The notes under the pieces: generated by a model
Database searches by the model: none
The model's input: the letters and a program-made list of their open reading frames with translations, nothing else
Told to the model about the DNA's origin: nothing
Assembly: GCF_051903065.1 (NCBI RefSeq)
Contig: NZ_CP178438.1
Source: Escherichia coli
GTDB taxonomy: Bacteria > Pseudomonadota > Gammaproteobacteria > Enterobacterales > Enterobacteriaceae
Reading direction: 5' to 3' (one strand)
DNA length: 64,000 nucleotides
Part shown: positions 8,890-49,140 of the stretch, piece by piece
Layout of the letters: each line of letters opens with the position of its first letter
How positions within the stretch are numbered: position 1 is the first letter of the stretch
Made by a program: the position numbers and the translations under genes

Positions 8890-9765
8890 TCAGGAAACGT
8901 GTTGCTGTGGGCTGCGACGATATGCCCAGACCATCATGATCACACCCGCGACAATCATCGGGATGGAAAGAATTTGCCCCATGCTGATGTACTGCACCCA
9001 GGCACCGGTAAACTGCGCGTCGGGCTGGCGGAAAAACTCAACAATGATGCGAAACGCGCCGTAGCCAATCAGGAACAAGCCAGACACGGCTCCCATCGGG
9101 CGCGGTTTACGAATATACAGGTTGAGGATAATAAACAGCACCACACCTTCCAGCAGCAGCTCGTACAACTGTGACGGGTGGCGAGGCAGCACGCCGTAAG
9201 TATCAAAAATGGATTGCCACTGCGGATTGTTTTGCAGCAACAGAATATCTTCGGTACGGGAGCCCGGGAACAGCATGGCAAACGGGAAGTTCGGGTCAAC
9301 GCGGCCCCACAGTTCACCGTTAATAAAGTTGCCCAGACGCCCGGCGCCAAGACCAAACGGAATGAGCGGTGCTATAAAATCAGATACCTGGAAGAAGGAA
9401 CGTTTGGTGCGGCGGGCGAAGATAATCATCACCACAATTACGCCAATCAGGCCGCCATGGAAGGACATGCCGCCGTCCCAGACGCGAAACAGATACAGCG
9501 GATCAGCCATAAACTGCGGGAAGTTGTAGAACAGAACATACCCAATACGTCCGCCAAGGAAAACGCCAAGGAAGCCCGCATAGAGTAAGTTTTCAACTTC
9601 ATTTTTGGTCCAGCCGCTGCCCGGACGATTCGCCCGACGTGTTGCCAGCCACATTGCAAAAATGAAACCCACCAGATACATCAGGCCGTACCAGTGAAGC
9701 GCCACGGGTCCTATTGAGAAAATGACCGGATCAAACTCCGGAAAATGCAGATAGCTACTGGTCAT
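8890..9765 (-). CDS. lgt: Prolipoprotein diacylglyceryl transferase
   Basis: 291-aa polytopic membrane ORF immediately upstream of thyA, as in the lgt-thyA operon. Confidence 0.95.
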
Positions 9766-14998: not shown

Positions 14999-15217
14999 AT
15001 GAAAAAATGGGCAGTAATAATTTCTGCAGTCGGACTGGCGTTTGCTGTTTCCGGGTGTTCCAGTGATTACGTCATGGCGACCAAAGATGGCCGTATGATT
15101 TTGACCGATGGAAAACCTGAAATTGATGATGATACCGGGCTGGTGAGTTATCACGATCAGCAAGGTAACGCGATGCAAATTAACCGTGATGATGTTTCGC
15201 AAATAATTGAACGTTAA
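14999..15217 (+). CDS. ygdR: Small lipoprotein YgdR
   Basis: 72-aa ORF with lipoprotein signal [23 protein letters not shown]. Confidence 0.85.
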
Positions 15218-15324
15218 CAAATAAGGTCAGCATCCGGCTGGCCTTAAGATTTTTCTCTTTCCCTTTTCCCTTCCCTCTGCCATTTTTATATTCCTTATGT
15301 CGTGATTATAAAAAGGAAACGGCT

Positions 15325-16365
15325 ATGCAATATCACCGTATACCCCACAGTTCGCTGGAAGTCAGCACGCTGGGGCTTGGCACGATGACGTTTGGTGAAC
15401 AGAACAGCGAAGCCGACGCCCACGCACAACTCGACTATGCCGTCGCTCAGGGCATTAACCTTATCGACGTTGCCGAAATGTACCCAGTACCTCCGCGCCC
15501 CGAAACGCAAGGGTTAACCGAAACCTACGTCGGCAACTGGCTGGCGAAACATGGCAGCCGCGAAAAGTTAATTATCGCCTCCAAAGTGAGCGGACCGTCG
15601 CGCAATAATGACAAGGGCATCCGCCCGGATCAGGCGCTGGATCGGAAGAATATCCGCGAAGCGCTGCATGACAGCCTCAAGCGTCTGCAGACTGATTACC
15701 TCGATCTTTATCAGGTGCACTGGCCGCAGCGCCCAACCAACTGCTTCGGCAAACTCGGTTATAGCTGGACAGATTCTGCGCCTGCGGTTTCGCTGCTGGA
15801 TACGCTGGACGCACTGGCAGAGTACCAACGAGCGGGAAAAATTCGTTATATCGGCGTGTCGAACGAAACTGCATTTGGCGTAATGCGCTACCTGCATCTG
15901 GCGGACAAACACGATCTGCCGCGTATTGTCACCATTCAGAACCCTTACAGTCTGTTAAACCGCAGTTTTGAAGTAGGTCTGGCAGAAGTCAGCCAGTATG
16001 AAGGGGTCGAACTGCTGGCCTATTCGTGCCTGGGTTTCGGCACGCTGACCGGGAAATATCTCAATGGTGCAAAACCCGCTGGCGCACGTAATACGCTCTT
16101 TAGTCGGTTCACCCGCTATAGCGGTGAGCAAACGCAAAAAGCCGTCGCGGCGTATGTTGATATCGCCAGACGTCATGGCCTGGATCCTGCTCAGATGGCG
16201 CTCGCTTTTGTACGTCGTCAACCGTTTGTTGCCAGCACTCTGCTGGGCGCAACCACGATGGAGCAGCTGAAAACTAACGTCGAAAGTTTGCATCTGGAGT
16301 TGAGCGAAGACGTATTAGCTGAAATTGAAGCGGTGCATCAGGTTTATACGTATCCTGCACCATAA
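15325..16365 (+). CDS. tas: Aldo-keto reductase Tas
   Basis: 346-aa ORF; aldo-keto reductase family. Confidence 0.9.
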   Translation: MQYHRIPHSSLEVSTLGLGTMTFGEQNSEADAHAQLDYAVAQGINLIDVAEMYPVPPRPETQGLTETYVGNWLAKHGSREKLIIASKVSGPSRNNDKGIRPDQALDRKNIREALHDSLKRLQTDYLDLYQVHWPQRPTNCFGKLGYSWTDSAPAVSLLDTLDALAEYQRAGKIRYIGVSNETAFGVMRYLHLADKHDLPRIVTIQNPYSLLNRSFEVGLAEVSQYEGVELLAYSCLGFGTLTGKYLNGAKPAGARNTLFSRFTRYSGEQTQKAVAAYVDIARRHGLDPAQMALAFVRRQPFVASTLLGATTMEQLKTNVESLHLELSEDVLAEIEAVHQVYTYPAP

Positions 16366-19829: not shown

Positions 19830-19917
19830 AAAAAAAACCTGCGCATCCGCGCAGGTTGGTGCAAGAGACAGGGTACGAAGAGCGTACCGAATAATCTCAC
19901 CAATCAATACCTCTGGG
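19830..19917 (-). ncRNA. omrA: OmrA small regulatory RNA
   Basis: Minus-strand sequence CCCAGAGGTATTGATTGGTGAGATTATTCGG...CTGCGCGGATGCGCAGG followed by a U-run (terminator hairpin); matches OmrA in the aas-galR intergenic region. Confidence 0.9.
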
Positions 19918-20031: not shown

Positions 20032-20114
20032 AAAAAAAAACCTGCGCATCTGCGCAGGCTGGTGTAATTCATGTGCTCAACCCGAAGTTGACTTCACCTA
20101 TCAATACCTCTGGG
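20032..20114 (-). ncRNA. omrB: OmrB small regulatory RNA
   Basis: Minus-strand CCCAGAGGTATTGATAGGTGAAGTCAACTTCGGGTTGAGCACATGAATTACACCAGCCTGCGCAGATGCGCAGG plus U-run; tandem paralogue of omrA sharing 5' and 3' ends. Confidence 0.9.
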
Positions 20115-28139: not shown

Positions 28140-29321
28140 CTACTCGTCACGTTCAATGGTCAATGCTACGCCCTGGCCCCCGCCGATACAAAGCGTTGCC
28201 AGTCCTTTGCGGGCATTACGTTTCACCATTTCATGAACCAGAGAAACCAGGATTCGGCAACCGGAAGCGCCTATCGGGTGACCGAGTGCGATCGCGCCAC
28301 CATTGACATTGACCCGACGCTCATCCCATTCAAGCATCTTGCCAACCGAAAGCGCCTGTGCAGCAAACGCTTCATTAGCCTCGATAAGATCGACATCAGC
28401 CAACTGCCAGCCCACACGCTCCAGGCAACGGCGGGTCGCATACACCGGCGCAATTCCCATCAATGCTGGATCTACACCAACGCTGGCAAATGCGCGGATG
28501 CGGGCCAGCACGGGTAAATTCAACGCTCGTGCTTTGGCTTCGCTCATCATCATTACCGCAGCTGCGCCATCGTTTATGGATGATGCATTACCCGCTGTCA
28601 CAGAACCGAGACTATCAAATGAAGGATTTAAACGGGCTAAGCCTTCTGCACTGGCGTCAGTGCGTGGCTGTTCATCGGTATCAATAACCAACGTCTGACC
28701 ATTACTTTGGGTCATTACCGGGACGATCTCATCTTTAAATCGTCCGGCGTCAATCGCCGCTCGCGCTTTTTGTTGCGAGCTAAGTGCGTAAGCATCCTGC
28801 AACTGACGGCTGATGCCATATTCGCGAGCCAGATTTTCGGCGGTGACACCAATATGATAATCATTGAAGGCATCCCACAACCCATCATGCACCAGACTGT
28901 CAACCAACTGGCTATTGCCAAGCTGTGCACCGGTGCGGCTATCAGTCAGAACATGTGGTGCGCGGCTCATGTTTTCCTGGCCACCGGCGATGACAATATC
29001 AGCCTCGCCACACTGTATCGCCTGAGTAGCCAGATGCAGTGCCTTAAGCCCGGAACCGCAAACGTCATTAATCGTGATTGCAGAAACGCTATTAGGAAGA
29101 CCACCTTTAATAGCCGATTGCCTTGCCGGATTCTGCCCTGCCCCTGCAGTCAACACCTGGCCAAGAATCACTTCATCCACCGCATATGCAGGCACGCCGG
29201 TACGTTCTATTAACGCTTTCACGACCAGGCTACCAAGTTCCACGGCGGAATGACCCGCTAACGCACCACGAAAGCAGCCGATAGGTGTCCGTAACGCCCC
29301 GACAATCACAACGTCTTTCAT
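28140..29321 (-). CDS. yqeF: Acetyl-CoA acetyltransferase (thiolase) family protein
   Basis: 393/394-aa thiolase-family ORF. Confidence 0.9.
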   Translation of the reverse strand: MKDVVIVGALRTPIGCFRGALAGHSAVELGSLVVKALIERTGVPAYAVDEVILGQVLTAGAGQNPARQSAIKGGLPNSVSAITINDVCGSGLKALHLATQAIQCGEADIVIAGGQENMSRAPHVLTDSRTGAQLGNSQLVDSLVHDGLWDAFNDYHIGVTAENLAREYGISRQLQDAYALSSQQKARAAIDAGRFKDEIVPVMTQSNGQTLVIDTDEQPRTDASAEGLARLNPSFDSLGSVTAGNASSINDGAAAVMMMSEAKARALNLPVLARIRAFASVGVDPALMGIAPVYATRRCLERVGWQLADVDLIEANEAFAAQALSVGKMLEWDERRVNVNGGAIALGHPIGASGCRILVSLVHEMVKRNARKGLATLCIGGGQGVALTIERDE

Positions 29322-29575
29322 CACAACCTCGCACCAATTAACAGTGCAATAGTAAATGATTGTTAATTACAGTTATCTTAATTGTTTAAAAAAAGTGATT
29401 TTTATCACAAAGGAAATATGCCTGAGTAGCAGTCAGAGACATAACTGGCACGTAAGGTTTGCAACCACTAACCCACCAATAGAGAGGTAGATAGGGCGTT
29501 AATCTCCCATACTTAACCTGGTTTATGGTAAATTGCCCTCCATTTTGTTTAATTTGTAGATGATACGTTCAGATA

Positions 29576-30805
29576 ATGTCTAATATTTGGTCAAAAGAAG
29601 AAACTCTGTGGAGTTTCGCGCTCTACGGCACAGCCGTTGGTGCAGGCACGCTCTTCCTTCCTATTCAGTTAGGTTCGGCAGGGGCAGTGGTCCTGTTTAT
29701 TACTGCTCTGGTCGCCTGGCCTTTAACATATTGGCCACATAAAGCCTTATGCCAGTTCATCCTCTCATCGAAAACATCAGCAGGTGAAGGGATAACGGGC
29801 GCAGTAACACACTACTATGGCAAGAAGATTGGTAATCTGATTACCACGCTGTACTTCATCGCCTTTTTTGTCGTCGTGTTGATATACGCAGTGGCAATTA
29901 CCAACTCACTTACAGAACAGCTGGCAAAGCATATGGTGATTGATCTTCGCATCCGTATGTTGGTGAGTCTGGGTGTTGTATTAATCCTGAATCTCATTTT
30001 TCTGATGGGACGTCATGCCACTATTCGGGTAATGGGATTTTTGGTATTCCCATTGATTGCCTATTTCTTATTTCTTTCCATTTACCTTGTCGGTAGTTGG
30101 CAACCTGATCTATTAACAACCCAGGTAGAGTTCAATCAGAATACCCTTCACCAGATATGGATATCGATTCCCGTGATGGTTTTCGCCTTTAGCCATACGC
30201 CCATTATTTCTACGTTTGCCATAGACAGACGTGAAAAATATGGCGAACACGCTATGGATAAATGCAAAAAAATTATGAAAGTCGCTTATCTCATCATCTG
30301 CATAAGTGTACTGTTCTTTGTCTTTAGCTGCCTGCTTTCTATTCCACCTTCGTATATTGAAGCGGCTAAAGAAGAAGGGGTCACCATTTTATCGGCGCTT
30401 TCTATGCTGCCGAACGCCCCAGCATGGTTGTCAATTTCCGGGATTATTGTCGCAGTAGTTGCCATGTCGAAATCATTCCTGGGTACGTACTTTGGCGTTA
30501 TTGAAGGTGCCACAGAGGTCGTCAAAACAACACTACAGCAGGTTGGTATAAAGAAAAGTCGTGCATTTAACCGCGCACTATCAATTATGTTGGTATCGCT
30601 GATTACCTTCATTGTTTGTTGCATTAACCCGAACGCGATTTCGATGATTTATGCGATCAGCGGCCCGCTCATTGCCATGATACTTTTCATCATGCCTACG
30701 CTATCAACATATCTCATCCCGGCGCTTAAACCCTGGCGTTCCATCGGAAATCTGATTACGCTGATCGTGGGTATCCTGTGCGTATCGGTAATGTTCTTTA
30801 GCTAA
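29576..30805 (+). CDS. yqeG: Amino-acid transporter family inner membrane protein
   Basis: 409-aa polytopic membrane ORF; last backbone gene before the AT-rich island. Confidence 0.85.
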   Translation: MSNIWSKEETLWSFALYGTAVGAGTLFLPIQLGSAGAVVLFITALVAWPLTYWPHKALCQFILSSKTSAGEGITGAVTHYYGKKIGNLITTLYFIAFFVVVLIYAVAITNSLTEQLAKHMVIDLRIRMLVSLGVVLILNLIFLMGRHATIRVMGFLVFPLIAYFLFLSIYLVGSWQPDLLTTQVEFNQNTLHQIWISIPVMVFAFSHTPIISTFAIDRREKYGEHAMDKCKKIMKVAYLIICISVLFFVFSCLLSIPPSYIEAAKEEGVTILSALSMLPNAPAWLSISGIIVAVVAMSKSFLGTYFGVIEGATEVVKTTLQQVGIKKSRAFNRALSIMLVSLITFIVCCINPNAISMIYAISGPLIAMILFIMPTLSTYLIPALKPWRSIGNLITLIVGILCVSVMFFS

Positions 30806-31264
30806 TATCCATTGTGAATGGTTCAAAATTGCTACAATTTTGAACCATTCCATTTTTCATAATGTTCATTTGTTATTATTCCGCCCTATCACTTCTCTCG
30901 TCATATCCTAGAATTATCAGTTAGTTAAACACACAAAGAGATCTGAACATCTTAAATAAGACTATTTAAGATGCATAACTTAGATTCGCAAGATATCTTC
31001 TGGTCATTCAAAAACAATTTGCGATATAGATATTCTCATACTATGAGATAGTTATCTGGACCACTCTCAACCATACAAGATTAAATCAGTGAAACATAAT
31101 CATATTTAATAACGAGAAATGCATTTTTAAATGTCTTAATCAGAATTATAGCAAATACAGATTAATCACAATTTTTCCCAGCAAAATTACAAAATCATGG
31201 TGTATTGACATCATCAATAACCGATGAAATTATGCAATTATATACGGATAGGGAGGTTCTTAAC

Positions 31265-31897
31265 ATGGGGCTTTGTAGTCGTTATAAAAGTCTTACATGC
31301 AATAGTTGCTCAATGCATTGCCAAATAATGCCAGAAGAGTCACCGCGTTTGCAGTATTGCGCAAACTCGTGTTTTTGTATGTGGCCCGAAGAAAGTTCAT
31401 ATTTTAATCGTGGTGTGGTAGAAGGTATCTTAACAAAAAACCACAATGCGAGATTAAGCGGATATATTTTTGTCGATTTTTCAGTAAGTTTTTTACGTCT
31501 ATTCCTTGAAAAAGACTGGATTGACTATCTTGCAAGTACTGACATGGGGATTGTTTTAGTCAGCGACCGCAATATGCAATCGTTAGCTAATTACTGGCGA
31601 AAACACAACTCTGCAATATCTGCTGTCATATATAATGATGATGGTCTTGATGTTGCCAATGAAAAGATCAGACAACTATTTATTGGTCGTTATTTATCAT
31701 TTACCAGAGGTAACACATTAACTCAGATGGAATTCACCATAATGGGGTATATGGTTTCTGGTTATAATCCATATCAGATTGCTGAAGTTCTGGATATGGA
31801 TATCCGTAGCATCTACGCGTACAAGCAACGAATCGAAAAGAGAATGGGTGGTAAAATAAACGAATTATTTATTCGTTCACATTCGGTCCAACATTGA
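31265..31897 (+). CDS. yqeH: LuxR-type HTH transcriptional regulator (ETT2-associated)
   Basis: Start MGLCSRYKSL preceded by GGAGG gives 210 aa; C-terminal LuxR-type HTH (GYNPYQIAEVLDMDIRSIYAYKQRIEKRMG). Confidence 0.75.
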   Translation: MGLCSRYKSLTCNSCSMHCQIMPEESPRLQYCANSCFCMWPEESSYFNRGVVEGILTKNHNARLSGYIFVDFSVSFLRLFLEKDWIDYLASTDMGIVLVSDRNMQSLANYWRKHNSAISAVIYNDDGLDVANEKIRQLFIGRYLSFTRGNTLTQMEFTIMGYMVSGYNPYQIAEVLDMDIRSIYAYKQRIEKRMGGKINELFIRSHSVQH

Positions 31898-32230
31898 TAC
31901 TCAAAAATCTGCCAGAATCATACTCTGTTTATACGGGCATTTATTGAAATGCCCGTATTTTATAAATAGGCCGTCCCCTCAAGAGTAAACATCATAGTAT
32001 TTAAAACCATCACACGAAAAATTCAGAAGCATTACGTAATATGAATTTACAAACAATAGTGGCATAAATGTTAACCATGTTAATTTACATAAAGTTTTAC
32101 GTTGCGACATTAAAGCCTCATTTCAATCATCATGATAAATATAAAATTAATATATATTTATGCCGTAAATACCAATATACTTAGCAAACTATGTGATTTC
32201 CATTTCGATTGATTTAGTGTTTATTGACGT

Positions 32231-33040
32231 ATGTACTGGATTATTAACGATAATATCGAGTTCTGGCCTGAGCACCGAAAATTAATATCGGTACATAACG
32301 CCGATCTTAACGTCGTTCTGACAACGCCAGCCAGTCGTTGTTTATCACTTCTACTTGAAGCTTTTCCTGATGTGGTTGCACAACAAGATTTTTTCACCAG
32401 AGTCTGGGAAGAAGAAGGTATGCGTGTGCCTACTAACACGTTATATCAGAACATATCCATTATCAGACGCGGATTTCGCGCTGTTGGTGATACTACCCAC
32501 TCGCTTATTGCAACCGTGCCGAGAAGAGGATTCAAGATCCATAATGACATTAACATACAAAATCATGTAATAAACTCGTCAACAGACGCACATACACACA
32601 ATGCCCCACCTGCCATAAAAGTTAATGCGGGATACAAAGAGAGCATTGGTGGCGCAAAGAATTTCAATAACAAAATCCTCAAACATATAAAAAGTTATCT
32701 AATTATGTTGAGCGCATTTGTCATAGGCGCATATTCTGCATATTGGCTATGGAATAATAATCAACCGAAGCCATTTTTCAAGGATTACAAGACTGTTGCG
32801 GAAATTAATGGCTGCCATTTTAATGTAACAGAAGATACAATTGATGGGTTGAAAGAGTTCGATAAATATAAAACACGGATACTGGATTCGGGGATTAACT
32901 GTAAAAAATATCCGTGGTTATACTTCCCTCTTGCAAAATCCTCACCGGGGATGATTGTTATGGCATGCAATAAAAACTATAACCAACATGAAGTGGCAGG
33001 CTGTTTAACCCTGTCTTACCGTGAGGTTAATCGTGATTGA
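32231..33040 (+). CDS. yqeI: ToxR/CadC-like membrane-anchored winged-helix regulator (ETT2-associated)
   Basis: 269-aa ORF: N-terminal winged-helix-like region, one TM segment (ILKHIKSYLIMLSAFVIGAYSAYWLW), periplasmic C-terminus. Confidence 0.75.
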   Translation: MYWIINDNIEFWPEHRKLISVHNADLNVVLTTPASRCLSLLLEAFPDVVAQQDFFTRVWEEEGMRVPTNTLYQNISIIRRGFRAVGDTTHSLIATVPRRGFKIHNDINIQNHVINSSTDAHTHNAPPAIKVNAGYKESIGGAKNFNNKILKHIKSYLIMLSAFVIGAYSAYWLWNNNQPKPFFKDYKTVAEINGCHFNVTEDTIDGLKEFDKYKTRILDSGINCKKYPWLYFPLAKSSPGMIVMACNKNYNQHEVAGCLTLSYREVNRD

Positions 33041-33515
33041 TTATAAAAAAAACTTATTATTTATTGTAGTTTTTATCAGTGGGTTTATTCTCTTCACTGT
33101 CTATTCTTACACTGCAGAAAAAATGATATATAACGAAACATGCACTGCAAATTGGGTGATTTTTAATGACCAGGGGCGAGCAAATCTTACTATCGACTTT
33201 ATGTATAACCAAAAAAATAAAACAGGAACTGTTGCGTTGAGTGGGACCTGGCAACAAGGTAATAGAGAAAGTAAATCAATACGGCGAAATATTGAATACA
33301 CATGGGTTGAAAACTATGACACAGCCCATTTAACTTCAAAAAAAGTTAATAAGTTTGAGATTATGGATCAAGTCGATGATGATAGACTTGCTGAACTTAT
33401 TCCTGATTTTTATGTCTTTCCAGAAAAAAGTGTAAGCTATAATATACTAAAGCAAGGTAAACATGCTTTTATTTTGAGTATTGGTAACAGAGCAATAATG
33501 CATTGTGCAAGGTAG
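33033..33515 (+). CDS. yqeJ: Hypothetical protein YqeJ (N-terminal TM helix)
   Basis: Probable GTG start with GAGG 7 nt upstream gives 160 aa; listed ORF starts 12 nt earlier. Confidence 0.65.
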   Translation: MIDYKKNLLFIVVFISGFILFTVYSYTAEKMIYNETCTANWVIFNDQGRANLTIDFMYNQKNKTGTVALSGTWQQGNRESKSIRRNIEYTWVENYDTAHLTSKKVNKFEIMDQVDDDRLAELIPDFYVFPEKSVSYNILKQGKHAFILSIGNRAIMHCAR

Positions 33516-33663
33516 ACTAAAATAGATAACAAAAAGATGGAACCTCGTTAATCATAAAATAATAAAATTAAATATGCTTGCAGTATATGCCAGTATAAAG
33601 CATCAAAGTTTTGATCAACATCTTTCATTTTAGACATCACCTTGCAATGTAAAATATCATGTA

Positions 33664-34089
33664 TCAACAACATCTGGTGCATATCCATGAGTCGAACTCA
33701 ACATTCATCTTAGCTCGATTATTATTCCTTCGTACAGTCGATGTAAACAATACAGAAAGAGGATTATTAAGAACCAGTTTACTCAGTGAATCAATAGAGG
33801 AAAGGATTAACGTTTCTTTAAAAGAATTAATTTCATCATCTGTTAAACTAAACTCATCATTGACAGATCGTGAGATATAACTGTTTTTAACTTTACTCTT
33901 TACGTTGACTTTACTGACAGAATTAACATTCACATATCTTGAATTTAATGCCCATGATGTTGTTTGCGTGAGAACCTTCTCAGCATTAAGGAATTTTTTT
34001 AACGGAATCCTTGGTTTCTTTTTCGAGTCCGAATTAACTATATCATGCATATAGACCATTTCATGAATCTGCGAAAACTCAATGTCCAT
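33664..34089 (-). CDS. yqeK: Hypothetical protein YqeK
   Basis: Listed 145-aa ORF in AT-rich island; probable start at [10 protein letters not shown] (141 aa). Confidence 0.6.
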
Positions 34090-34518
34090 TATATACCTCA
34101 CATTTTTACCGTGACTCGATGTTACTGTTCAATAATCACCATCCATCAATACTAAAATTAATACCCCAAATGTGCCGATAACAAATATAGTCATTCTACG
34201 TAACGTCTCCATAAGGTGATAACCTTGATCAAATGAATTTTGAATATAATAAAGGAAATCTTTTGAGATGTTTATCACGAATAACGCTATTTATGTTACC
34301 AATATCATTTCGAGTGCGCACACTATCCATCTGTTTTTTAAGGATATAAAAAACAACATGTAAGTTATGTAAATTGCCGATGCTACTAAGTAACATTATG
34401 GTAAAAAAAGTAAAAATGAGCGATTTTTGATAGAATAAAGCAAGAGAAAAGGTGATATTTGACATTATCAGAAGCTGCGAATTCGGATTTTGCTCTAATC
34501 AAATGAGAGAAATGTAAA

Positions 34519-35010
34519 ATGAAGCCACGAAATATTAATAATAGCCTACCACTGCAACCATTAGTTCCTGATCAGGAGAACAAAAATAAGAAAAATGAAG
34601 AGAAATTCGTTAATTCAGTTAAAATTACCATGGGGTCTGGTTTAAATTATATTGAACAAGAATCTCTTGGAGGAAAATACCTAACACATGATTTGTCAAT
34701 AAAGATAGCGGATATTTCTGAAGAGATAATTCAGCAAGCAATATTATCTGCTATGTGCATATATAAATTACCGATTACAGATGATTTAATGAGTATGGCT
34801 ACAAATGAACTCATAAAACTGACCAAAATAGAGAATAATTTAGACCTGAATAAATTCGCTACTATATGCACAGACGTTCTATCCCCCCTCGTCACCAGAC
34901 ATAATAAACAAAAAAACCAAAACGACATTCTACCCTTCGCAAAAATCCCCTTTTTAATTTTCATTGAAAAAAAGGAAATTGATAATATGAATCCAGGTCA
35001 TGCACATTAG
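34519..35010 (+). CDS. ygeF: Hypothetical ETT2 protein YgeF
   Basis: 163-aa ORF upstream of ygeG; low-complexity N-terminus. Confidence 0.55.
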   Translation: MKPRNINNSLPLQPLVPDQENKNKKNEEKFVNSVKITMGSGLNYIEQESLGGKYLTHDLSIKIADISEEIIQQAILSAMCIYKLPITDDLMSMATNELIKLTKIENNLDLNKFATICTDVLSPLVTRHNKQKNQNDILPFAKIPFLIFIEKKEIDNMNPGHAH

Positions 35011-35235
35011 GGCATTTTGAAATGTCGTAATTAAGATAACTAATAAGGTGAATATTAGCAAAACAACTAATGATGTTATTATTTTGTAGCGGCAAGTATT
35101 TTTACTAATAACGAAGAAATATACTCATAAGCAATGCAAGCTTAAAACCAATAATTTAAAAAAGATAAATGTAATAATATTAATGAGTCAATCAATAATA
35201 ATTGAGCATCACGAGACACATCACAGAGGAATATT

Positions 35236-35727
35236 ATGAACAAAGAAACAATTGAAATATTCAATAATAGTGATGAATGGGCAAATCAACTAAAACACGC
35301 ATTATCGAAAGGAGAAAACCTGGCATTACTGCATGGTTTAACTCCTGATATCCTTGATGGAATATATGCATATGCATTCGACTACCATGAAAAGGGTAAT
35401 ATAACGGACGCAGAAATTTATTATAAATTATTGTGCATTTATGCGTTCGAAAATCATGAATATCTAAAAGGTTTTGCATCAGTATGTCAGTCAAAAAAGA
35501 AATATCAACAAGCATATGACCTTTACAAACTAAGTTACAATTACTCCCCATATGATGACTATTCAGTTATTTATCGTATGGGTCAATGTCAAATTGGCGC
35601 AAAAAATATCGATAACGCAATGCAATGTTTCTTTCATATAATTAACAATTGTGAGGATGATAGTGTTAAGAGTAAAGCGCAGGCATATGTCGAACTCTTA
35701 ACCGATAATTCAGAAGATAATGATTAA
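35236..35727 (+). CDS. ygeG: TPR-type class II T3SS chaperone-like protein (SycD/LcrH/SicA family)
   Basis: 163-aa ORF with TPR-like YY/YK repeats; start preceded by AGAGGA. Confidence 0.75.
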   Translation: MNKETIEIFNNSDEWANQLKHALSKGENLALLHGLTPDILDGIYAYAFDYHEKGNITDAEIYYKLLCIYAFENHEYLKGFASVCQSKKKYQQAYDLYKLSYNYSPYDDYSVIYRMGQCQIGAKNIDNAMQCFFHIINNCEDDSVKSKAQAYVELLTDNSEDND

Positions 35728-36061
35728 GCATTACAATCATTTGGTTAAAATTGCTGGTTATAGTGCAGTTAACCACTATAACCAGTACCTCTTATCTTTT
35801 CTTAAACCAACATCTTAAAACAGTTAAGAGCACACTATAAATCATTATTTTTCAATGCGTTAGAGAACAATCTATTTTATCAAAATTGAATAAGGCTATT
35901 TCAGATTACATCACTGAATTCCTAAGATAAATTAGTGAACACAACCATAGATATGTCGAATGTAATTTCCTGTAGCGTTAATGACACATAAATATGAATA
36001 GCCATAATTTCTATTGCTTATGCAGGATGCAAGAAACCAATTTTTTCATAGAGGTTAACTA

Positions 36062-45868: not shown

Positions 45869-45934
45869 TTTTACCTCCCCTTTCGATTTCTCTTTGAACG
45901 GTCCTTTTAATCCAGGACCGCCTCATTATGAAAA

Positions 45935-47545
45935 CTATTTAATTCCCTCATCATTGATAAGGTTGGACATCTCTTTCAACATGAGAGTCATTGAAGCTTT
46001 CGACCAATTTAGCGGAATGATAGGGCTTGGCGCTTCATGCAAAGTTCCCGACTTGTGGATATAGTTATAGCTTTCGGGAAGTGCCATTTCTGGTACGCTC
46101 CTGCCATTTGCACCAATCATATTCTCGCCTGTTATTTGGGCCAATGATCTATTCATAAATTGCACTGAGTCATTCAAATACTCTTCTTTTCTTGATTCTT
46201 TATAAACAATTGCTGCTGATTTTGCATACCATGAGTCAAAAAACCATTCTGCTTCTGTTGATGGAATGAAGCTCTTTTCTCTTTTTGCATGCGAATTTTG
46301 ATCGGTATCAGTTTTAATATCATTGAACCAAAAATTTGCCGACTGATAATTATCCTTCTCGTATCTTTTTATACCATACGGACCTGCTAGTTTTTTAACT
46401 ATTTTTAGAACTTGCTCTTTTCTTCTGGTGTTTATCTTTGAAAGATTTGCAGGATAAATAACATTAAGTAAAGCCGCATCGCCTTCTCTGTAATGTTTAT
46501 CTTTTTCCAGATAACCTGGGGATTCTCCCCCTAAATCAAGCTGTAACGTTATTCTTTCATAACCTTTATCTATGAGGTGGTTCAACCTCGTTGTTGAAAG
46601 AGTTTCATCCAGTTCATTGACTTTAGCTTCGCGTAGTAAATCAGAGACAAAAACAGAGTCTTTCTTCGAGAGTAGGTTTGACAAACGTTCCAGTCCAGAG
46701 GTCACCAGTGCAACGGAAGATGTGTTTAATCGGGCATCTTCCTCCCACGCTCCGGAATCTTCCATAACATAGAAATTGGCTTTATCCAGATAAGCAATCA
46801 GCAGCGCAACCGATTTTAGTCGGTCACCTTTTTGCCAATCTTCAGCGTTAATAGTACCAGTATTGATTGCTTGTATAAGGAGATCAAGATAAAGACCTAA
46901 CGCATCATTTTGTTTATGGTTCCACAGCTGCGGCTTGCCTTCTTCCTGCACATCTGCCATCACGGGGGAGTTGCTGTCAAATCGGATATGCACAGCATTC
47001 ATTTGCCCGGGAATACCATCCAGTCGTTTTGGGTTGCTAATGATGTCCTGCATCCGCTTAATCTGGTCGGGCGTAGACATATAATCCCACAGGGTGAGCA
47101 GAACCTTTTTTGCGGCTACACTATTTCCCTGGTCTGATACTAATGCCATATAGCCCCATAAACTATCCCTCAGCCAGACAGCATCATAGTGGGTTTCTGC
47201 CGCTGTTTTGTCATCTTCGAAAGTAGAAGCAAGAATAAACGTTCCCCAGGGTTTCTCCGTCAACGTTAACTTTCGTGTGTTTTCTGTTAATGTTAGCAAT
47301 CCTTGAATTTCGTCTTTGGTATAGTGGCTCTTTATTTCATTTTGTAATTTGGCTGAGTGAATCAGAAGACGATAATTAGGATACTTATCTGGATTTAACG
47401 ATAAATAACTTTTATCTGTTGCTGCCCCCGTGGAATTAAGAATGTTAAATACAGATTCACTCGTCACTTCTGCCCCTGTCGCCTGGCATGTGCCGCACGA
47501 AAATATACCAGCGAGCAGAAGAGTTAATGCAGATTTCCCTTTCAT
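45935..47545 (-). CDS. Putative exported glycoside hydrolase family 15-like protein (YgeQ-like), apparently intact
   Basis: About 536-aa ORF from MKGKSALTLLLAGIFSCGTCQA (signal or lipoprotein-like); contains AVWLRDSLWGY, reminiscent of the glucoamylase-type fold. Family assignment is from memory, not a search. Confidence 0.5.
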   Translation of the reverse strand: MKGKSALTLLLAGIFSCGTCQATGAEVTSESVFNILNSTGAATDKSYLSLNPDKYPNYRLLIHSAKLQNEIKSHYTKDEIQGLLTLTENTRKLTLTEKPWGTFILASTFEDDKTAAETHYDAVWLRDSLWGYMALVSDQGNSVAAKKVLLTLWDYMSTPDQIKRMQDIISNPKRLDGIPGQMNAVHIRFDSNSPVMADVQEEGKPQLWNHKQNDALGLYLDLLIQAINTGTINAEDWQKGDRLKSVALLIAYLDKANFYVMEDSGAWEEDARLNTSSVALVTSGLERLSNLLSKKDSVFVSDLLREAKVNELDETLSTTRLNHLIDKGYERITLQLDLGGESPGYLEKDKHYREGDAALLNVIYPANLSKINTRRKEQVLKIVKKLAGPYGIKRYEKDNYQSANFWFNDIKTDTDQNSHAKREKSFIPSTEAEWFFDSWYAKSAAIVYKESRKEEYLNDSVQFMNRSLAQITGENMIGANGRSVPEMALPESYNYIHKSGTLHEAPSPIIPLNWSKASMTLMLKEMSNLINDEGIK

Positions 47546-47778
47546 AAAATATTCCATCAATCGTTTGTTAAAAGCGTAGATAACCACTTATTTAACAACT
47601 TGAAAATAAGGTATTTTACCTGGGTTGTTATAAAAGGATTGCATTGCGTAAACGCTTTTTATTTACAAAAAAATGGGGAAGTGTTACGGCGATTGCGAAA
47701 AGTCTGAAGCGATTGAATTAAGATAATATAGAAAATCAGATACAACAAAAATGGCAGGTTGATGAGGTGAAGATAAAT

Positions 47779-47852
47779 TGGAGCGGGCGAAGGGAATCGA
47801 ACCCTCGTATAGAGCTTGGGAAGCTCTCGTTCTACCATTGAACTACGCCCGC
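47779..47852 (-). tRNA. glyU: tRNA-Gly (anticodon CCC)
   Basis: Reverse complement reads GCGGGCGTAGTTCAATGGTAGAACGAGAGCTTCCCAAGCTCTATACGAGGGTTCGATTCCCTTCGCCCGCTCCA; cloverleaf with CCA end. Confidence 0.95.
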
Positions 47853-47931
47853 TTCGAGATGCGTAAGGCATTATAAACCTTACGCTCTCCTTAGCAAGTG
47901 CCGCGCTGCTGACTGCTGATTAATTCGCCAT

Positions 47932-48686
47932 CAGCATTTTGGCTTGCTGCCCTGCGGCGGCAAGTAACGTAGCGGATCAATTGCCGTTGCACGGTAACGA
48001 ATCTGGAAATGCAGGCGAACAGATGCCGCATCCGTGCTCCCCATGGTGGCGATTTTTTACCCAGCCTTCACGCTTTGCCCATTATTTACCAGCATCGTGT
48101 CATTATGGGCGTAAGCCGTAATGTAATCTTCACTGTGTTTAATCATGATGAGATTACCGTAGCCACGCAGCTGGTTGCCCACATACACCACCTTTCCTGC
48201 ACCCGCGGCGTAAATAGGTGTACCCCGTGGAGCTGAGATATCAATCCCTTTATTGCCGCCATCTGCTGTCGAATACGGCATGATAACTTTCCCTGTCGTT
48301 GGCCATAACCAACAACGTTGCCCTACTGGCGGCCAGGAAGATTTCGGTACCGCTGATGACGGTGTAACCGATGCGGTTTTGGTCGTTGATTTGGCGGTTG
48401 ATTTACGTGTACTACTGCTACTTTTCGCCCCACCCAGTTTTAGTTTCTGACCAACTTCAATGGTGTAAGGGGGGGAAATGCCGTTCAGTCGCGCCAGCTC
48501 TTTTACGCTGGTTCCCGTGGTGCGCGAAATACGATATACCGTATCCCCCCGTTTCACGGTGTAAACGGAGCCGGAATACGTTCCTGTATCGGATGATTTG
48601 CTACCCGAACAGCCCACCAAAAGCAGTCCAACCGATAACAACATCACGATACCCAGAGATTTTTTATTCAGGCGTCCCGCACTCAA
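47932..48686 (-). pseudogene. ygeR: LysM/M23-peptidase lipoprotein YgeR interrupted by an in-frame TAA
   Basis: Probable TTG start (AGGAAAG upstream) giving MSAGRLNKKSLGIVMLLSVGLLLVGCSG. Frame stops at 48057-48059 after ...NNGQSVKAG. The next 34 in-frame codons encode [41 protein letters not shown], the conserved M23 C-terminus. Confidence 0.75.
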
Positions 48687-49140
48687 AATCTTTCCTCGCT
48701 TAAAAAACAAGACGCCATATCATAGCAGCCAGCCTCTTGATACCCAATCTCTTGCTTCTGGAAAAACGCGGTAATAGAGAAAGAGGTTAATTTCATTTGG
48801 CAAAGGGAAGTATCATCAGCAAAATATTCACTGTAGAGGTATCGAATTTCCTGACTTTTTTACCCTATTTCCCATCCTGATGCGTAATAATCCCAATTTA
48901 TCACATTGATTTTATCGCCACTCATATTGATACGTATCACTGCCCCTATTCAGAGTCCTGTTTCGTATCATATCTGTGTTTTTTTAACGTCATCACACTT
49001 CCTTCCTCCCCTAACGCTTATCGTCGTTTCTGGCGTAAATCTTGCCTGCTTAGACTAAATCTTTGCCATAAGAACCAAATGTTCAAATCGAGGGGATTTC
49101 TATGGAAGCGCGGGAAGCAACCGCTACGGGTGAATCATGC

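Follow-up and report, generated by a model that had tools for sequence, protein, structure and literature searches.

An ETT2 remnant in Escherichia coli with an IS903B-scarred central deletion and a nonsense codon in eivC

The segment between yqeG and glyU (positions 30806-47852) of the 64,000-nucleotide stretch of Escherichia coli DNA analysed here (the window) is almost certainly the ETT2 island, a horizontally acquired type III secretion system (T3SS) cluster of the SPI-1/Inv-Mxi-Spa type that is dead as a secretion machine in the 23CRST027/23CRST031 lineage. The centre of the cluster, where most of the apparatus is encoded in the O157:H7 Sakai locus, has been replaced by a single insertion sequence, and the genes on either side of it, ygeH and eivC, are damaged. 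The same 17 kb is found with 100% identity in the chromosome of E. coli 23CRST027 (NZ_AP045789.1), where the RefSeq annotation uses the same gene names and places pseudogene flags on ygeH and sctN.

Location, boundaries and composition

ETT2 has been described as a 29.9-kb cluster adjoining glyU, with a GC content of 36.9% (PMC11068852). The segment studied here lies at that chromosomal site, between yqeG and glyU, with flanks that match those of Sakai. Two blocks of collinear nucleotide homology tie it to the Sakai locus (L005), one spanning yqeH to ygeH (29202-37339 against L005 1-8138, 97.7% identity) and one spanning eivC to eivF (38397-49000 against L005 20064-30662, 99.2% identity). The G+C content is low, about 37% against about 51% for the E. 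coli backbone: with the IS excluded, the island has 36.6% GC and the flanks 51.1%, and the left arm (33.4%) and right arm (38.8%) are both AT-rich. The sole patch of normal GC inside the island, at 37.3-39.3 kb, is made up of IS903B (52.7%) and eivC. On the left the change in composition is gradual and has no sharp edge, because yqeG is itself somewhat AT-rich, at 44% GC.

In keeping with an island, the segment adjoins a tRNA gene, glyU, which lies on the minus strand with its 3' end, at 47779, directed towards the island. No integrase gene is annotated by RefSeq beside the tRNA or elsewhere in the 64-kb window, and a scan of 29000-47778 for the 3'-terminal 12-20 nt of glyU, with at most two mismatches, returns no direct repeat of this end of the tRNA. 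A search for non-coding RNA families with Rfam over the whole window returns OmrA, OmrB and glyU only, with none inside the island. The first-pass annotation, made from the letters alone, had read the segment as an AT-rich, degraded ETT2 locus and had seen neither an integrase nor a repeat of the tRNA 3' end; the composition, the Sakai alignment, the NCBIfam T3SS families, the RefSeq annotation and the glyU scan all bear that reading out.

The 2.4 kb nearest to glyU, which that annotation passed over or understated, has a content unrelated to T3SS, namely an ORF for a GhoT/OrtT-family small toxin and a gene for a GH15-like protein (Table 1).

Table 1. Features of the yqeG-glyU segment and its boundary genes (positions in the window)
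Feature	Position	Strand	Evidence
yqeG, amino-acid permease, conserved left flank	29576..30805	+	RefSeq annotation of identical record
yqeH, LuxR-type HTH regulator, 210 aa, intact	31265..31897	+	99.5% aa identity to Sakai YqeH
yqeI, winged-helix (CadC/ToxR-like) regulator, 269 aa, intact	32231..33040	+	
yqeJ, 160 aa, no known family, intact	33033..33515	+	
yqeK, 141 aa, no known family, intact	33664..34089	-	
ygeF, hypothetical protein, 163 aa, intact here	34519..35010	+	92% aa identity to Sakai
ygeG, TPR class-II T3SS chaperone-like (SicA/SycD-like), 163 aa	35236..35727	+	NCBIfam
ygeH', truncated HilA-family regulator	36062..37339	+	NCBIfam YgeH; RefSeq 'missing C-terminus'
IS903B (IS5 family), 1057 bp; transposase ORF 37396-38364 (-)	37340..38396	-	RefSeq, inverted repeats, IS5-family model
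eivC' (sctN ATPase) pseudogene	38397..39659	-	RefSeq, NCBIfam, codon 328 nonsense
eivA, SctV export-gate protein, 686 aa, intact	39691..41751	-	NCBIfam; 99.9% aa identity to Sakai
eivE, SctW gatekeeper (InvE/YopN/MxiC family), 381 aa, intact	41744..42889	-	NCBIfam
eivG, SctC secretin, 567 aa, intact	42894..44597	-	TIGR02516; N-terminal signal-peptide-like segment
eivF, InvF-like AraC-family regulator, 249 aa, intact	44594..45343	-	NCBIfam InvF; RefSeq name 'EivF'
GhoT/OrtT-family small membrane toxin ORF, 59 aa, non-T3SS	45689..45868	-	Pfam PF10753 E 1.4e-11; RefSeq
GH15-like protein, 536 aa (ygeQ/ygeP region), intact here	45935..47545	-	Pfam PF00723 E 4e-5, weak match
glyU tRNA-Gly(CCC), right boundary, 3' end toward island	47779..47852	-	ARAGORN; Rfam

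Surviving T3SS genes

The ORFs that had been listed as eivA, eivG, eivE, a broken eivC, eivF, ygeG and ygeH are all present, with the sizes first given for eivA and eivG, and NCBIfam and RefSeq back their reading as homologues of SctV, SctC, SctW and SctN and as InvF-like, SycD-like and HilA-like proteins. Four of them score above curated NCBIfam cut-offs: EivA (SctV; NF011865, 1154 bits), EivE (SctW; NF011866, 607 bits), EivG (SctC; TIGR02516, 487 bits) and YgeH, the last with 1005 bits over profile positions 1-426 of 458. The SctN fragment encoded by eivC' reaches 579 bits, short of the cut-off of 594. Matches of EivF to the InvF family (E 1.7e-54) and of YgeG to SicA (E 5.5e-36) and LcrH_SycD (E 3.8e-23) fall under the equivalog cut-offs, so that '-like' is the right wording for both proteins. 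The N-terminus of EivG (MKIKLRITIILISVLCIFNGLLTPGAYA, followed by A) looks like a signal peptide.

The injectisome core set (SctC, D, J, F, I, R, S, T, U, V, N and Q, plus O, P and W) is incomplete. Only SctC, SctV and SctW are intact in the window, and SctN is a pseudogene. The genes for SctD, J, F, I, R, S, T, U, Q, O and P all map to the interval that is deleted here (L005 8139-20063), and none of them appears elsewhere in the RefSeq annotation of the 64-kb window. The earlier statement that needle, inner rod, basal body rings and SctRSTU are missing, and that no injectisome can be built from this window, agrees with both the Sakai alignment and this annotation.

The central deletion

Relative to Sakai, 11,925 bp have been lost in a single clean deletion, and a 1057-bp IS903B stands in their place. 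This removed ygeI, pbl, ygeK, ORFs of the ygeM region, orgA, eprK/J/I/H (equivalent to SctJ/I/F/D), etrA, epaS/R/Q/P/O (SctU/T/S/R/Q) and eivJ/I (SctP/O). The identity of the element is given by its length of ~1.06 kb, by perfect 18-bp terminal inverted repeats (GGCTTTGTTGAATAAATC) and by its IS5-family DDE transposase, which matches the IS5-family model with E 6e-107 and is named 'IS5-like element IS903B family transposase' in RefSeq. That one IS-scarred deletion is the cause of the gap had been missed in the first-pass annotation.

Simple insertion of IS903B has a 9-bp target-site duplication as its hallmark. Around this copy, flanked by AAAAACAAC on the left and CGTTTCACT on the right, no such duplication is found, in agreement with an IS-associated deletion and not with a simple insertion. 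The activity of IS903B probably produced the deletion, either through intramolecular transposition with deletion of adjacent DNA or through recombination between two copies in the same orientation. Both routes leave one IS and no target duplication, so that the end product cannot tell them apart. It is a serious possibility, somewhat short of an even chance, that two independent insertions, at the 3' ends of ygeH and eivC, recombined homologously, as opposed to a single intramolecular transposition: a double insertion is made plausible by the host chromosome, which has about 19-20 places matching IS903B, a number consistent with an active IS, and the predicted single IS without duplication is what is seen. 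Adjacent deletion predicts the same structure, however, and no intermediate, with IS903B at one junction and not at the other, is found among 5,426 complete E. coli genomes.

Repeats are able to mislead assemblers, and with ~20 copies of IS903B in the genome the gap might be ascribed to a collapse of the assembly over the element. This explanation is highly improbable and was rejected, since the complete genomes of 23CRST027 and 23CRST031, deposited separately, have identical junctions; a collapse would moreover need a copy of IS903B on either side of the interval, and that arrangement is itself the substrate for recombination.

At its left junction, the deletion leaves residues 1-426 of the 458 of YgeH. 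The C-terminal 32 residues are swapped for four IS-encoded residues, the ORF reading 15 nt into the IS and ending ...KNNGFVE before its stop codon. Rightly called broken from the start, eivC carries a TAT>TAA nonsense mutation in codon 328 (38676-38678) and has lost its last 9 codons and stop to the IS-associated deletion; the premature stop was acquired independently of that deletion. The damage to ygeH and the existence of two separate lesions in eivC had been missed or understated.

Age of the lesions and past selection

Both IS junctions are present in 2 of the 5,426 complete E. coli genomes, and the eivC nonsense allele in 2 of the 972 genomes that carry the segment. The lesions are therefore recent and private to the 23CRST027/23CRST031 lineage. 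Against strain AF57, historic dN/dS is 0.02-0.03 for eivC, eivA, eivG and eivF, a low ratio indicative of historic purifying selection on the eiv genes. The intact state of eivA, eivE and eivG would be explained by the recency of the lesion, and not by a working machine. The nearest relatives of this ETT2 allele carry other, IS1-associated deletions with different breakpoints, which shows recurrent, independent attrition.

The central block is kept (at least 80%) in 2,965 of the 5,426 complete genomes and the eivC-eivF block in only 976, so that loss of the former with retention of the latter is the less common pattern. The two blocks were counted separately, because the joining rule breaks any locus that retains the 11.9-kb block into two places; for the same reason, the 13 genomes in which coverage reaches at least 80% do not give a prevalence.

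Residual function

Phenotypes have been published for degenerate ETT2 loci (PMC11068852, PMC7058095), and to call the locus inert would therefore overstate the case. Cross-regulation by ETT2 regulators is reported in other strains, and mutants of yqeH, yqeI and eivF have phenotypes in APEC and EHEC with a degenerate ETT2 (PMC11068852). If there is any residual activity here, its source would be the regulators that survive, YqeH, YqeI and EivF. The remnant might even be an active regulatory module rather than an injectisome, with these three proteins, and possibly the truncated YgeH, modulating flagella, fimbriae, biofilm or other virulence genes. The published mutant phenotypes speak for such a module, as do the intact yqeH, yqeI and eivF with 99.5-100% amino-acid identity to Sakai, but the proposal is rather unlikely: the deletion has taken away two further regulators, etrA and ygeK, and after such recent lesions the ORFs would be expected to be intact whether or not selection acted on them. 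AT-rich islands are, in addition, generally silenced by H-NS.

It is very doubtful that the retention of eivF-eivG-eivE-eivA and yqeH/yqeI, with the whole epr/epa core lost, reflects selection for a residual role other than that of an injectisome. Such a role could consist in cross-regulation of surface structures by EivF, YqeH and YqeI; or the secretin, export gate and gatekeeper, left as orphans, could have been recruited to work with export components of the flagellum or of another system. Otherwise the pattern would be a mere snapshot of very recent decay.

Significance

For ETT2, widespread decay by deletions, IS elements and point mutations has been documented since 2004, and RefSeq already contains this very sequence and flags its pseudogenes. 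What is added is an exact description of one isoform, with its IS903B-scarred 11,925-bp central deletion and eivC nonsense codon, and its placement as recent and lineage-private. Related ETT2 alleles have each been struck by different IS-associated deletions, a picture of recurrent independent loss following long purifying selection. The importance goes little beyond bookkeeping, since the gene decay is of an ordinary, documented kind.

Comparison with known systems

With EAEC 042, O157:H7 Sakai provides the reference intact ETT2 locus, and it is to Sakai that the segment was aligned. The Sakai locus (ECs_3703-ECs_3737) has the same site, gene order and orientation and an equally low GC. It keeps the 11.9 kb in the centre, ygeI to eivI, in place of which the present locus has IS903B, a truncated ygeH and a truncated eivC with its nonsense codon; conversely, the GH15-like gene is a single intact ORF here and is split in Sakai.

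ETT2 deletion isoforms of the K-12 type and others are likewise degenerate: they have large deletions, contain IS elements and pseudogenes made by point mutation, and their apparatus cannot be assembled. 'Mutational attrition' of ETT2 is attributed to Ren et al. (2004), as cited in PMC7058095. Known isoforms have right-end deletions of 4.99, 5.68 or 8.74 kb, or a transposase in ygeH (PMC11068852). Where those published isoforms lose the right end, the present one has lost the centre and retains the eiv block at the right end.

IS903/IS903B is recognised here in the length, the terminal inverted repeats and the transposase family of the element; unlike a simply inserted IS903B, this copy has no 9-bp duplication, as expected at a deletion junction. 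The likeness to Salmonella SPI-1 extends over an InvA-type SctV, an InvG-type SctC, an InvE-type SctW and an InvC-type SctN, together with an InvF-like regulator, a SicA-like chaperone and a HilA-family regulator. In contrast with SPI-1, the locus occupies another chromosomal site, holds no effector or translocator genes, and has had its prg/org and spa equivalents deleted.

Composition and gene content

The segment between yqeG and glyU has a GC content of 36.6% (IS excluded; left arm 33.4%, right arm 38.8%) against 51.1% in its flanks, in agreement with the values published for ETT2, a 29.9 kb locus of 36.9% GC that adjoins glyU (PMC11068852). The sole patch of normal GC within the island, at ∼37.3-39.3 kb, comprises IS903B (52.7% GC) and eivC. 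The left edge is compositionally gradual, not sharp at 30806, because both yqeG (44% GC) and the stretch between yqeF and yqeG are themselves richer in AT than the backbone. The whole locus is identical (100%, nucleotide comparison) to the chromosome of E. coli 23CRST027 from human faeces in Ecuador (NZ_AP045789.1; window position 1 is its position 3,381,013), and the sibling genome 23CRST031 is essentially identical to the latter.

Features of the ETT2 interval and its neighbours (window coordinates; L005, the Sakai ETT2 locus)
Feature	Position	Strand	Annotation
OmrA/OmrB tandem sRNA genes	19830-19917; 20033-20114	-; -	Rfam RF00079, 96.6 and 86.1 bits
yqeG	29576-30805	+	RefSeq; left border of interval
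yqeH, yqeI, yqeJ, 26-aa ORF, yqeK, ygeF-like ORF, ygeG	after yqeG, in that order		RefSeq
ygeH	after ygeG		RefSeq pseudogene, C-terminus missing
IS903B	37340-38396 (1057 bp), between ygeH and sctN	- (transposase)	RefSeq; IS5-family transposase; perfect 18-bp terminal inverted repeats GGCTTTGTTGAATAAATC
sctN (eivC)	after IS903B		RefSeq pseudogene, internal stop
SctV-family gene, gatekeeper, sctC, eivF	after sctN, in that order		RefSeq
GhoT/OrtT-family small membrane toxin ORF, 59 aa	45689-45868	-	RefSeq; Pfam GhoT_OrtT E 1.4e-11
GH15-like gene, intact 536-aa ORF	45935-47545, before glyU	-	RefSeq GH15-family; Pfam GH15 weak, E 4e-5
glyU tRNA-Gly(CCC)	47779-47852	-	right border of interval
actS (ygeR), amidase activator	47931-48686	-	RefSeq pseudogene
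Block absent from window	L005 8139-20063		ygeI, pbl, ygeK-type LuxR regulator, ygeM-region ORFs, orgA/mxiK, eprK/J/I/H (SctJ, SctI, SctF, SctD), etrA, epaS/R/Q/P/O (SctU, T, S, R, Q), eivJ, eivI

The first-pass annotation had described a degraded, AT-rich ETT2 island, and both the observation and its interpretation hold. Against the NCBIfam models it is borne out gene by gene: EivA exceeds the SctV equivalog cut-off (1154 bits, cut-off 800), EivG that of SctC TIGR02516 (487, 238) and EivE that of the SctW gatekeeper (607, 520). EivF and YgeG match InvF (E 1.7e-54) and SicA (E 5.5e-36) under the equivalog cut-offs, which makes ‘InvF-like’ and ‘SycD/SicA-like’ the right wording. The HilA-like regulator YgeH scores 1005 bits against its own model, but over positions 1-426 of 458 only, and the 327-aa EivC fragment covers profile positions 1-328 of 431 of the SctN model (579 bits, cut-off 594).

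An IS903B scar in place of the secretion core

Aligned to the ETT2 locus of O157:H7 Sakai (ECs_3702-3739), the window falls into two collinear blocks: 29202-37339 corresponds to L005 1-8138 (97.7% identity) and 38397-49000 to L005 20064-30662 (99.2%). Between them, 11,925 bp of Sakai sequence is replaced by IS903B. The final 32 codons of ygeH are deleted, the ORF running 15 nt into IS903B to end ...KNNGFVE*, and eivC has lost its final 9 codons and stop codon. Separately from the deletion, eivC carries a TAT>TAA nonsense mutation at codon 328 (38676-38678), and is thus broken as previously claimed. This deletion scar, with the exact lesions, is the main addition to the earlier reading.

No 9-bp target duplication surrounds IS903B (flanks AAAAACAAC and CGTTTCACT), as expected for an IS at a deletion junction, and the deletion was probably mediated by the element. 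Intramolecular transposition of IS903B could have produced an adjacent deletion, or two copies in the same orientation could have recombined; both routes yield the same end product, from which they are indistinguishable.

The missing needle, rod, rings and SctRSTU, already reported as absent, all map to the lost block. With SctD, J, F, I, R, S, T, U, Q, O and P absent and SctN doubly broken, no injectisome can be assembled from what this locus encodes. From the literature, a putative residual role would be regulatory, via YqeH, YqeI and EivF; EtrA and YgeK have been lost, and YgeH lacks its C-terminus. As first noted, no integrase is annotated across the 64-kb window, and a search for a repeated glyU 3' end was negative.

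Age of the lesions

Among 5,426 complete E. coli genomes, both IS903B junctions occur in only two, 23CRST027 and 23CRST031, as does the eivC nonsense allele among the 972 genomes holding that segment. Besides ygeH and eivC, the island ORFs are full length, with 92-100% protein identity to Sakai. Compared with the more distant AF57 allele, eivC(1-327), eivA, eivG and eivF have dN/dS of 0.02-0.03 (dS ∼0.06-0.13), indicating that purifying selection acted strongly on them through most of their history. Inactivation is most simply read as recent and lineage-private, the surviving ORFs appearing intact because there has been too little time for decay. The ∼19-20 IS903B-matching places on NZ_AP045789.1 suggest expansion of the element in this lineage, and other deletions or pseudogenes may stem from it.

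Genes near glyU and beyond

The GhoT/OrtT-family ORF is conserved within the ETT2 island, where it separates eivF from the GH15-like gene, and shows 100% identity to ECs_3735 of Sakai; no antitoxin is annotated adjacent to it. The GH15-like protein has a lipoprotein-like or signal-like N-terminus and no NCBIfam match; its gene is split in Sakai (ygeP and ECs_3737). Past glyU and just beyond the island, actS has a CAA>TAA nonsense mutation at codon 210 of 251 (48057-48059), whereas Sakai, GPEC1446 and AF57 retain it intact. OmrA/OmrB occupy the aas-galR intergenic region, the normal E. coli arrangement.

Comparison with other ETT2 loci

ETT2 is found in most non-B2 E. coli and is widely hit by ‘mutational attrition’, with ten to eleven isoforms bearing deletions and transposase insertions; intact loci occur in EAEC 042, ST69 and some others (PMC11068852, PMC7058095). 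The two nearest alleles bear lesions unlike those of the window. GPEC1446 (98.9-99.5% identity) has an IS1A-associated deletion of L005 8513-14872 (ygeI' to etrA; site at 8923-9620 of its own locus, L002) and frameshifts in ygeH, sctS and the sctQ-type gene. In AF57 the interval lost, in association with IS1, is L005 15282-19672 (epaS' to eivI'; site at 15194-15891 of its locus, L003), and the gatekeeper gene carries a nonsense mutation. These two deletions are independent, with different breakpoints, and show that the ETT2 core has been lost repeatedly through IS activity. Of the 5,426 complete genomes, 2,965 keep at least 80% of the central block missing from the window, and only 976 keep as much of the eivC-eivF block that the window retains; loss of the centre with retention of the right end is therefore the less usual pattern. 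It is still just another ETT2 isoform, an instance of a known phenomenon in a public genome already annotated.
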